A stretch of DNA of 64,000 nucleotides from Escherichia coli (GTDB lineage: Bacteria; Pseudomonadota; Gammaproteobacteria; Enterobacterales; Enterobacteriaceae): assembly GCF_044324875.1 (NCBI RefSeq), contig NZ_CP172185.1. One strand, 5' to 3'. The notes beneath the pieces are model-generated. The model did no database searches. It was given only the letters and a program-made list of their open reading frames with translations, and was not told the DNA's origin. Position numbers and translations under genes: made by a program. Below are positions 63,206 to 63,837 of this stretch, one piece after another. Positions within the stretch are counted from its first letter, which is position 1; the number at the start of each line of letters is the position of its first letter.

Positions 63206-63282
63206 GCATCCGTAGCTCAGCTGGATAGAGTACTCGGCTACGAACCGAGCGGTCGGAGGTTCGAATCCTCCCGGATGCACCA
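63206..63282 (+). tRNA. argV: tRNA-Arg (anticodon ACG), copy 1
   Basis: 77 nt GCATCCGTAGCTCAGCTGGATAGAGTACTCGGCTACGAACCGAGCGGTCGGAGGTTCGAATCCTCCCGGATGCACCA. Confidence 0.95.
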
Positions 63283-63480
63283 TATTCTACGTACTTTCAG
63301 CGATGAAGGTATGGAAGAGGTGGCGGTAATAACCGCAGGCACTAGGGAGGATAACGTTGCTTTAGCAACGGCCCGAAGGGCGAGCCGCAAGGCGAGTAAT
63401 CCTCCCGGATGCACCATCTCTTACTTGATACGGCTTTAGTAGCGGTATCAAAAAATCTGCAGTAAAGTAAGTTTCCCGAT
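63283..63480 (+). repeat. tRNA-Arg inter-gene spacer unit 1 containing duplicated tRNA 3' end (63398..63416)
   Basis: 198 bp spacer; copy of AATCCTCCCGGATGCACCA about 115 nt after the tRNA; near-identical spacer repeats after copy 2. Confidence 0.8.
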
Positions 63481-63557
63481 GCATCCGTAGCTCAGCTGGA
63501 TAGAGTACTCGGCTACGAACCGAGCGGTCGGAGGTTCGAATCCTCCCGGATGCACCA
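63481..63557 (+). tRNA. tRNA-Arg (anticodon ACG), copy 2
   Basis: Identical 77 nt sequence to copy 1, 275 bp downstream. Confidence 0.95.
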
Positions 63558-63700
63558 TATTCTCCGTAATCTTCAGCAATGAAGGTATCGAAGAGGTAGC
63601 GGTATTAACCGCAGGCACCAGGGAGGATAACGTTGCGCCAGCAACGGCCCGAAGGGCGAACGCCAGTGAGTCATCCTCCCGGATGCACCATCATCTCCAA
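63558..63700 (+). repeat. tRNA-Arg spacer unit 2 with duplicated tRNA 3' end (63673..63690)
   Basis: Same architecture as unit 1 with a few substitutions; not followed by another tRNA within the window. Confidence 0.75.
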
Positions 63701-63837
63701 AAAATTTCCTTCAAAAATATCTCATTTCTAAATAACTACTTTATCCATTTCCTGAATTTTCTTCTCCTTCGCCATCAGCGACAAAATCAAGCAATTACGC
63801 TAAAGTAGCGTCATATTTTTCGACTTGCGAGAAGACC

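Follow-up and report, generated by a model that had tools for sequence, protein, structure and literature searches.

RtT-like short-form elements in the spacers of the serV-tRNA-Arg(ACG) array of Escherichia coli

Between csrA and yqaB of Escherichia coli, genes for tRNA-Arg(ACG) stand in tandem, and each of the two copies studied here is followed a little more than a hundred nucleotides later by a second copy of its own 3' end. What are the structured spacers that carry these duplicated ends, and how does the array come to differ from strain to strain? We addressed these questions in a window of 64,000 nucleotides, the whole stretch of DNA that was analysed. It falls within the E. coli/Shigella group, and among 5,426 complete E. 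coli genomes, a set from which the window itself is absent, none exceeds 99.0% identity to it. The locus holds csrA, tRNA genes and yqaB only, and the features from csrA to the terminator-like site described below lie on the plus strand. The csrA coding sequence (62609..62794), the upstream neighbour and of interest as context only, was read from the sequence and from the PGAP annotation of colinear E. coli loci. A promoter-like site, TTGACT-16-TAATAT (63020..63047), lies 63 nt 5' of serV and is likely the operon promoter; it was the sole such site found by a consensus scan of positions 62700-63900, and because shuffled sequences average 1.4 sites it is, taken alone, weak evidence. The serV gene for tRNA-Ser(GCU) (63110..63202; ARAGORN; Rfam tRNA, 56.8 bits) is directly followed by tRNA-Arg copy 1 (63206..63282; ARAGORN; Rfam tRNA, 67.1 bits) and, 275 bp further on, by copy 2 (63481..63557; ARAGORN and Rfam), both 77 nt long and identical. 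Past the second copy, the consensus scan found a single terminator-like site, a hairpin ACGCTAAAGTAGCGT with a T-rich tail (63797..63821, hairpin 63797-63811), between the last spacer element and the start of yqaB at 63838; it is likely the end of the tRNA operon, and at an average of 1.2 sites in shuffles this evidence is weak as well.

The two arginine genes are separated by a spacer of 198 nt, which begins with a 134-nt element that we call R1 (63283..63416) and ends with a plain 64-nt inter-tRNA spacer, S (63417..63480), made up of the 3' trailer of one tRNA and the 5' leader of the next. A terminal element of 133 nt, R2 (63558..63690), follows copy 2. R1 starts one base after the CCA of copy 1, R2 likewise after that of copy 2, and both are on the strand of the tRNAs. 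The 18-mer ATCCTCCCGGATGCACCA has four occurrences, two at the tRNA ends (63265 and 63540) and two in the spacers (63399 and 63673); the chance expectation is about 2e-6 per 64 kb, and the repeats are therefore not due to chance. Over 19 nt the copy of the tRNA 3' end is exact in R1 (19/19, 63398-63416) and matches at 18/19 positions in R2 (63672-63690), because position 63672 is C and not A. Gaps of 115 nt (R1) and 114 nt (R2) separate the tRNAs from these copies, and the sequence 3' of the copied CCA (TCTCTTACTT...) is the one that follows a genuine tRNA. An earlier note on this DNA had described two tandem tRNA-Arg(ACG) genes, each with a copy of its 3' end about 115 nt later, and the ARAGORN and Rfam calls and the four 18-mer sites bear this out. 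Its further claim of a 275-bp unit that occurs twice holds for the spacing of the tRNA genes but not for the units themselves, since the second is without the 64-nt S and the array reads T-R-S-T-R, where T is the 77-nt tRNA gene. Tandem Repeats Finder reported no repeat at the tRNA-Arg array; the array amounts to less than two full periods, the second unit being without S, and its units differ in composition, so that the blank is no argument against the existence of the repeat. The coding potential of the R segments consisted of mechanical ORFs only, which overlap the tRNAs, and an 8-codon ORF (MKVWKRWR) in R1 is missing from R2.

In R1, two 5' hairpins (63290-63313 and 63323-63336) are followed by a closing helix, whose 5' strand GGGAGGAT (63345-63352) and 3' strand ATCCTCCC (63399-63406) enclose three inner hairpins, H1 (63355-63370), H2 (63371-63381) and H3 (63384-63393). 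Two paired hairpins had been noted earlier as bracketed by GGGAGGA and TCCTCCC. Both hairpins and the bracket are present, and the bracket does enclose cgttgctttagcaacg (63355-63370), together with the small hairpins at 63371-63381 and 63384-63393, but ggcggtaataaccgc (about 63322-63336) lies 5' of the bracket and outside it. In R2 the third hairpin is degraded (GAACGCCAGTGAG).

The identity of the elements is indicated by the RtT family of Rfam (RF00391), a repeat located directly 3' of tRNA genes in tRNA operons of gammaproteobacteria, whose model aligns end to end on R1 and R2 at 29.2 and 25.8 bits. Both scores are below the gathering threshold of 45 bits, at which the window yields only three tRNAs, and the Arg spacers are therefore left unannotated by pipelines. 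The same is seen in K-12, where the three copies of the Arg spacer score 31.0, 29.2 and 22.8 bits and are unannotated; the PGAP annotation of that strain has four 'RtT sRNA' features in the order tyrV-RtT-tyrT-RtT-RtT-RtT and one more after lysQ. In the K-12 lysT operon the model scores 46.7-60 bits after every tRNA-Lys, and these copies pass the threshold only because the model borrows part of the adjacent tRNA-Lys. The Rfam alignment deletes two model segments in R1 and R2, corresponding to the inner 5' hairpins of the tyrT type (GAGAAnC...GGTTCGA and GAGCG..CGAG), and the absence of these two hairpins causes the curated model to under-score the Arg spacers. A covariance model was built from nine short forms of the Lys operon only (K-12 Lys copies above the cut-off). 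It matched R1 at 63317-63416 (64.5 bits, E 3e-14) and R2 at 63593-63690 (61.3 bits, E 2e-13), aligning model positions 1-100, with no other match in the 64 kb, and its alignment extends the similarity to the Lys and Tyr elements beyond the 19-nt core used for the scan described below. Since a model made from Lys elements alone matches at E values of about 1e-13, the Arg spacers qualify as true RtT members. By sequence comparison, then, R1 and R2 are unannotated short-form members of this known family; R1 is identified by the full Rfam model, the Lys-derived model, fold and covariation, and R2 by the two models and fold. The earlier description of the spacer feature was correct, and what it missed was this membership.

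Predicted folds agree with the assignment. The minimum free energy is -58.3 kcal/mol for R1 (z -5.6) and -53.6 kcal/mol for R2 (z -5.05), and none of 200 shuffles folds as well; for the complementary strand z is -3.35, and S, at z -1.97, is not clearly better than shuffles. Each fold consists of one or two 5' hairpins and then a module of about 72 nt, in which the 8-bp closing helix GGGAGGAT/ATCCTCCC, with an imperfect extension GCAC(C/T)A/GGATGC, surrounds the hairpins CGTTGC-loop-GCAACG and GCCC-GAA-GGGC and a variable third one, and which ends in a single-stranded ...GCACCA tail. The 3' strand of the closing helix is a copy of the 3' strand of the tRNA T-stem and of the inner acceptor strand, and as it leads into the GCACCA tail the element ends like a tRNA; each element is thus predicted to terminate in a minihelix resembling the acceptor and T-stem, with a CCA tail.

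A covariation check across enterobacteria, suggested with the earlier note, found that the paired columns vary compensatorily and that the spacer fold is conserved. Among the matches listed, 22 distinct Arg-linked sequences from about 13 genera have 96.2% of their cells paired, and shifting the partners by 1-3 columns lowers this to 29-52%. Two-sided changes are seen in eight pairs, where the shifted controls have 2-4, and the covariation score is 0.163 against at most 0.048. Most of the changes fall in two hairpins, the second of the 5' part and the third of the inner ones, and the closing helix has 96.5% of its cells paired. For 104 distinct family members among the matches listed, 92.6% of cells are paired against 30-47%, and two-sided changes occur in 14 of 22 pairs against 3-7; this alignment was fitted to the Lys model, which biases the pair counts towards the structure. 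Because the scan pattern prescribed the sequences of H1 and H2, the covariation figures are uninformative for both. Some pairs are G-U, which on the opposite strand would be A-C mismatches, and this favours an RNA of the sense strand.

The closing helix is also specific to the tRNA that it follows. Its 5' strand complements the 3' strand of the T-stem and the first acceptor bases of the cognate tRNA, pairing as GGGAGGAT/ATCCTCCC in Arg, GGGGAAGGAT/ATCCTTCCCC in Tyr, CGTGAAGGAT/ATCCTGCACG in Lys and AGAGGAT/ATCCTCT in Pro elements. It also tracks variants of the tRNAs, as in GGGAAGAT/ATCTTCC for Hafnia Arg and GGAGAAGG/CCTTCTCC for Budvicia and Izhakiella Tyr. Merely counting the bases of the upstream region that are complementary to the 3'-end copy failed to separate cognate from non-cognate combinations, because the background is about 8/12, and duplex energies were used instead. 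In 46 of 59 non-redundant elements the most favourable duplex is the one with the cognate end, with cognate means of -14.2 (Arg), -12.9 (Lys) and -18.0 kcal/mol (Tyr) against off-diagonal values of -7 to -13.8.

A scan for the common core GCAACGRCCCGAAGGGYGA, with one genome per species, found at least 120 loci. Among the matches listed, the taxa are mostly Enterobacterales, with some Orbales (Gilliamella), Photobacterium, Aestuariibacter, Marinobacterium and Amphritea, and a few chance matches in GC-rich taxa. By ARAGORN, and again among the matches listed, the elements lie 3' of tRNA-Tyr (51), tRNA-Lys (37), tRNA-Arg(ACG) (30), tRNA-Pro(UGG/CGG) (8), tRNA-Glu (3) and tRNA-Arg(CCG) (2). Of 160 core matches listed, 105 are accompanied by an exact repeat, 12 nt or longer, of the 3' end of the tRNA. 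The tRNAs whose ends are matched by RtT-like modules here are those for Arg, Lys, Tyr, Pro and Glu. The Arg(ACG) elements among the matches listed share the synteny csrA-serV-Arg-yqaB in Enterobacter, Citrobacter, Klebsiella, Kosakonia, Phytobacter, Silvania, Pluralibacter, Hafnia, Serratia, Pantoea and others, and this orthologous position indicates that they are old and vertically inherited. According to a published survey (PMC4986893), Rfam RtT members of Actinobacillus pleuropneumoniae adjoin Asn and Lys tRNAs and give Northern signals; our literature search found no paper describing the Arg copies and no expression data for the Arg spacers.

Two ideas on the 5' parts of these elements were rejected. 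That R represents a whole tRNA-Arg gene, decayed and interrupted in its T-loop, was dismissed when the 5' 60 nt aligned with the 5' part of the tRNA no better than shuffles did (six Arg-type elements, semi-global alignment, z -1.7 to +0.1 against dinucleotide shuffles). That long forms generally keep cognate tRNA sequence upstream of their internal TTCGA was discarded on finding cognate matches of only 4-6 nt, with one exception, a Yersinia nurmii hybrid that has 18 identical nt of the cognate tRNA.

The differences between strains were dissected into modules in the window and four E. coli genomes. Across these five genomes R is made up of a part of 114-116 nt and the 19-nt copied tRNA end, and S is 62-64 nt long (TCTCTTACTTGATA...CCCGAT), the S of the window (63417-63480) being the same sequence as the spacer that lies directly 3' of tRNAs without R. 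The window is T-R-S-T-R, a K-12-like strain T-R-S-T-S-T-R-S-T-R, a pig isolate T-S-T-R-S-T-R and O157:H7 T-S-T-S-T-(remnant)-T-R, the remnant being the first 30 nt of R fused to S; O157:H7 thus has the terminal R and an internally deleted remnant only. The four Arg genes that the earlier note had given for K-12 are indeed found in K-12-like strains, at spacings of 275, 139 and 275 bp and not at a uniform 275. In all five genomes S comes directly after the CCA of the tRNA where R is absent and after the copied CCA where R is present, so that R with its 3'-end copy is a precise indel bounded by 19-bp direct repeats. The array of the window equals that of K-12 minus 414 bp (T+S+T+R+S); its first R and S match the first R and S of K-12, and its second R matches the last R of K-12, R2 being the counterpart of the last element of K-12-like strains. 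Read from these module sequences, a single crossover between the identical tRNA copies 2 and 4 would give exactly the layout of the window from that of K-12. On the same comparison, the 77-bp tRNA genes and the 19-bp 3'-end copies are clearly the recombination substrates behind the shuffling of modules between strains. The suggested footprint of repeated recombination at the tRNA 3' end therefore survives as regards the substrates, but the copied end is not a mere scar, because it is base-paired within a conserved structured element and integral to it.

Copy number of the tRNA-Arg cluster is known to be redundant, and in E. coli it proved as variable by strain as had been supposed. The 77-nt gene occurs at 21,502 places in 5,425 of 5,426 complete genomes, with 1-9 copies per genome, a median of 4 and a mean of 3.96, and about 52 of 60 records in an evenly spaced sample have four copies. 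At least 12 complete genomes, from unrelated strains, contain the exact two-copy layout of the window in one colinear piece; they include O104:H4 2011C-3493 as well as two laboratory strains, MC1061 and S17-1. Further layouts among the complete genomes include a two-copy T-S-T-R and a one-copy T-R. A tally of two-copy genomes by query coverage was dropped in favour of single-piece rows and places per genome, because BLAST joins pieces from longer arrays and the tally was unreliable (61 vs 4,627 genomes).

The two copies in the window might instead be an artefact of assembly, in which four true genes were reduced to two when S1-tRNA-R4 was threaded through the identical 77-bp tRNA node. Four copies are the norm; MC1061 and S17-1, which derive from K-12, and one of two O104:H4 assemblies are two-copy while their relatives have more; and these repeats do break short-read assemblies, in which contigs of 244-335 nt represent one tRNA-plus-R unit, some with raised coverage, so that the risk of collapse is real. 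Nevertheless, the same layout is colinear in at least 12 'complete' genomes of unrelated strains, one-copy and other layouts exist too, a single crossover accounts exactly for the layout, and the repeats, with 77 bp exact, are short relative to modern reads. We regard collapse in the window as rather doubtful on this balance, and the two-copy layout as a rare but recurrent strain variant; since close relatives of some two-copy strains have more copies, the state arises recurrently, whether in vivo or in assemblers.

A second alternative concerns R itself, which could be neutral debris, that is, decaying partial duplications of the tRNA 3' end that arose by unequal crossing-over, were kept alike by gene conversion and have no role at the RNA level. 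R is precisely present or absent between strains, and the O157 remnant is internally deleted; in some copies the closing helix is mismatched (GGAAGGAT, GGGATGAT) or the third hairpin degraded; tRNA-Arg copies followed directly by S without R are common, in many strains; and 138 of the 5,426 complete genomes have no match to R at all. Individual copies of R therefore look dispensable in E. coli, which argues for weak constraint. Against debris, about 13 genera retain the core and fold at the orthologous locus and show compensatory changes, the core recurs in elements that follow five other tRNA species, no residual similarity to tRNA-Arg is left in the 5' part of R (z about 0), and at least one copy of R is kept in 97.5% of genomes. 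Conservation across genera with compensatory change, together with this retention, argues that the structure matters, and we consider the debris explanation unlikely.

It is probable, in our assessment, that one joint explanation covers the locus: the spacers are short-form RtT members, give rise to a tRNA-like excised RNA and act at the DNA level as recombination substrates. Lying between the promoter-like and terminator-like sites with no terminator between, R1 and R2 are probably co-transcribed with serV and the Arg tRNAs. The enzymes of tRNA 3'-end maturation would also excise them, as the sequence after the copied CCA is that after a genuine tRNA and these enzymes should release R there. 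The expected product would be a stable, structured RNA of about 130 nt with its CCA end protected by the closing helix. Bosl and Kersten in 1991 reportedly described rttR of the E. coli tyrT operon, where a 171-nt rtT RNA is said to come from a 178-nt unit, and the product predicted for R would be analogous to it. By this homology a stable spacer-derived RNA may be expected from the Arg spacers, at the least as a processed by-product.

Instead of being released, the spacer might act in cis within the operon, as a platform for processing or in control of termination and read-through. RtT is filed as cis-regulatory in Rfam, the terminal copy lies between the last tRNA and the terminator-like site, and long forms of other operons adjoin duplicated intrinsic terminators. 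However, tRNAs without a following R are common and presumably mature normally, and the consensus scan found no terminator-like site inside R, which leaves a cis-acting element distinctly improbable. Even less probable is a mobile or selfish element, a small non-autonomous module inserting at tRNA 3' ends and duplicating 18-19 bp of target: such an element would suit the presence of the core behind tRNA-Tyr, Lys, Arg(ACG), Arg(CCG), Pro and Glu, each with a cognate 3'-end repeat, the precise presence and absence and the units in tandem arrays, but the Arg copies are syntenic and look vertically inherited with no non-syntenic Arg copy among the matches listed, the locus has no transposase or integrase gene, genuine phage or plasmid copies are essentially lacking (five IMG/VR matches were all prophage-flank host DNA or chance, and the phage and plasmid BLAST matches almost all mis-filed chromosomal records), recombination between the 19-bp repeats explains the indels equally well, and simple target duplication would not make a 5' closing strand complementary to the tRNA-specific end. 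None of the four rivals, of which collapse bears on copy number only, fits the whole data set as well as the RtT reading.

The feature is real and mostly ordinary, and the cognate-specific minihelix is the one aspect worth following. A cognate-specific closing helix in elements of at least five tRNA species offers a testable clue to the purpose of RtT, which has been unclear since 1991. As a speculation that we hold to be improbable, the RtT-like modules might be one retargetable RNA family, whose closing strand and tail are rewritten for each tRNA, so that they mimic uncharged tRNA ends and titrate processing or sensing factors. If this were true, the elements would be tRNA-end mimics and not by-products, which would explain an old report in which rtT is said to affect the stringent response, and the presence/absence alleles of the Arg cluster would be a ready-made test system. 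On the RtT reading, each E. coli or Shigella genome has two to three RtT-type elements that go unannotated because they score below the Rfam threshold, and the family model could be widened to take in the short form. Small and highly recombinogenic, the array of the serV-arg cluster is easily mis-assembled, and a tRNA-Arg(ACG) dosage of 1-9 matters for studies of tRNA dosage, codon usage and TadA editing that assume four copies.

Compared with known systems, the Arg copies are closest in arrangement to the tyrT RtT (rttR) and the Lys short forms. Like the tyrT RtT, they lie directly 3' of the tRNA in the same orientation and in tandem with tRNA genes, end in a 19-nt copy of their own tRNA 3' end including CCA, share the core ...AACGTTGC-loop-GCAACGGCCCGAAGGGCGAG-hairpin-GAGTAATCC... 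and have a closing helix that includes the copied T-stem strand. They differ from it in length, with 134 nt against a tyrT unit of 178, in being without the inner hairpins GAGAAGCTTCGACCAAGGTTCGA and CGAGCGNNAGCGAG, in having another 5' part and an Arg-specific closing strand and tail, and in scoring 22.8-31 bits against the threshold of 45, for which reason they are unannotated, unlike the tyrT RtT. The short forms of the lysT-valT-lysW-valZ-lysYZQ operon have the same architecture and length class as the Arg spacers. Their central module is nearly identical (...GGATAACGTTGC....GCAACGGCCCGAAGGGCGAG...CGAGTCATCC...), and so is the layout (...CGTGAAGGATAACGTTGC....GCAACGGCCCGAAGGGCGAG...CGAGTCATCCTGCACGACCCACCA), whereas their closing strand and tail are Lys-specific (CGTGAAGGAT / ATCCTGCACGACCCACCA) and their 5' part is shorter, with one hairpin.

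Two further systems are alike in one respect each. The 3'ETS-leuZ and the internal spacers of metZWV, reportedly described by Lalaouna et al. in 2015 as sponges that base-pair with RyhB and RybB, are excised from a tRNA operon transcript at maturation, as is predicted for the Arg spacers; they are base-pairing sponges without a copy of the tRNA 3' end, which the Arg spacers have. The attL/attR sites of integrative elements resemble R in that a direct repeat of a tRNA 3' end flanks a segment beside an intact tRNA gene. In R, however, the segment is only 115 nt long, holds no gene for an integrase or other recombinase, and is conserved as a folded RNA whose 5' strand is complementary to the repeat.

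In the K-12 lysT operon (locus L131, 1062-2044), four of the five above-threshold Rfam matches to RtT, the repeat of the tyrT operon (RF00391), begin within a tRNA-Lys gene, because the tRNA's own GGTTCGA serves as the 5' half of the Rfam model. This overlap with tRNA-Lys probably explains why PGAP retained only the non-overlapping RtT match, which lies after lysQ. Downstream of lysQ (L131 2154-2400), the RtT element and a terminator-like hairpin are laid out as they are in an IMG/VR contig, L009, where RtT units of the Lys type, in the long form, recur in tandem on the minus strand (about 12250-12421; period, 153). 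The terminator-like hairpin of L009, GAGCGCCTAAGGCGCTTTTTTT, is copied after every Lys-type unit, and the repeat unit there therefore spans the terminator of the tRNA as well as its 3' end.

An Arg-linked long-form RtT element was read from the sequence of Yersinia nurmii (L085, about 2034-2196, minus strand). The 18 nt preceding its internal TTCGA (GAACCGAGCGGTCGGAAG) match the stretch of tRNA-Arg(ACG) between anticodon loop and T-stem at every position, and the element looks like a tRNA/RtT hybrid, as would arise by recombination at the common GGTTCGA. In E. coli O157:H7, a 102-nt spacer (L005 1322-1423) consists of S, the plain 64-nt spacer, fused to the first ~30 nt of R, the short-form RtT-like element found 3' of tRNA-Arg; it is an R copy from which an internal deletion took the core and the 3'-end copy. 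Sequence reading also identified a truncated Tyr-type RtT unit on the minus strand of another IMG/VR contig (L007, about 4570-4837), which is interrupted within its core by unrelated DNA. The interrupting DNA starts, on the opposite strand, with an ORF ending in ...KRHNQALIALARRRCDVLFAMMRDGTFYTPQAS, which resembles the C-terminus of an IS110-family transposase, and an insertion sequence may therefore have inserted into the RtT repeat.

Five genome contigs of 244-335 nt (L027, L034, L096, L103 and L104) each consist entirely of a single tRNA-plus-RtT unit, and two such one-unit contigs have a coverage of ~72x, compared with ~50x for the other contigs of the same assembly. Arrays of these units are broken or collapsed by short-read assemblers.

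Within the window, ARAGORN called an antisense 'tRNA-Arg(tcg)' (63226-63297, minus strand) on top of the first real tRNA-Arg copy, and Rfam returned sub-threshold plastid-UTR matches antisense to both tRNA-Arg genes; these were rejected as artefacts of the near-palindromic tRNA sequence. R1, the element following the first tRNA-Arg, contains an 8-codon ORF at 63306-63335 (ATG AAG GTA TGG AAG AGG TGG CGG TAA). The ORF is probably without meaning, since its counterpart in R2, the element following the second tRNA-Arg, is shortened to 6 codons. Its product, MKVWKRWR, is basic, as is the tpr peptide annotated within the tyrT repeat.
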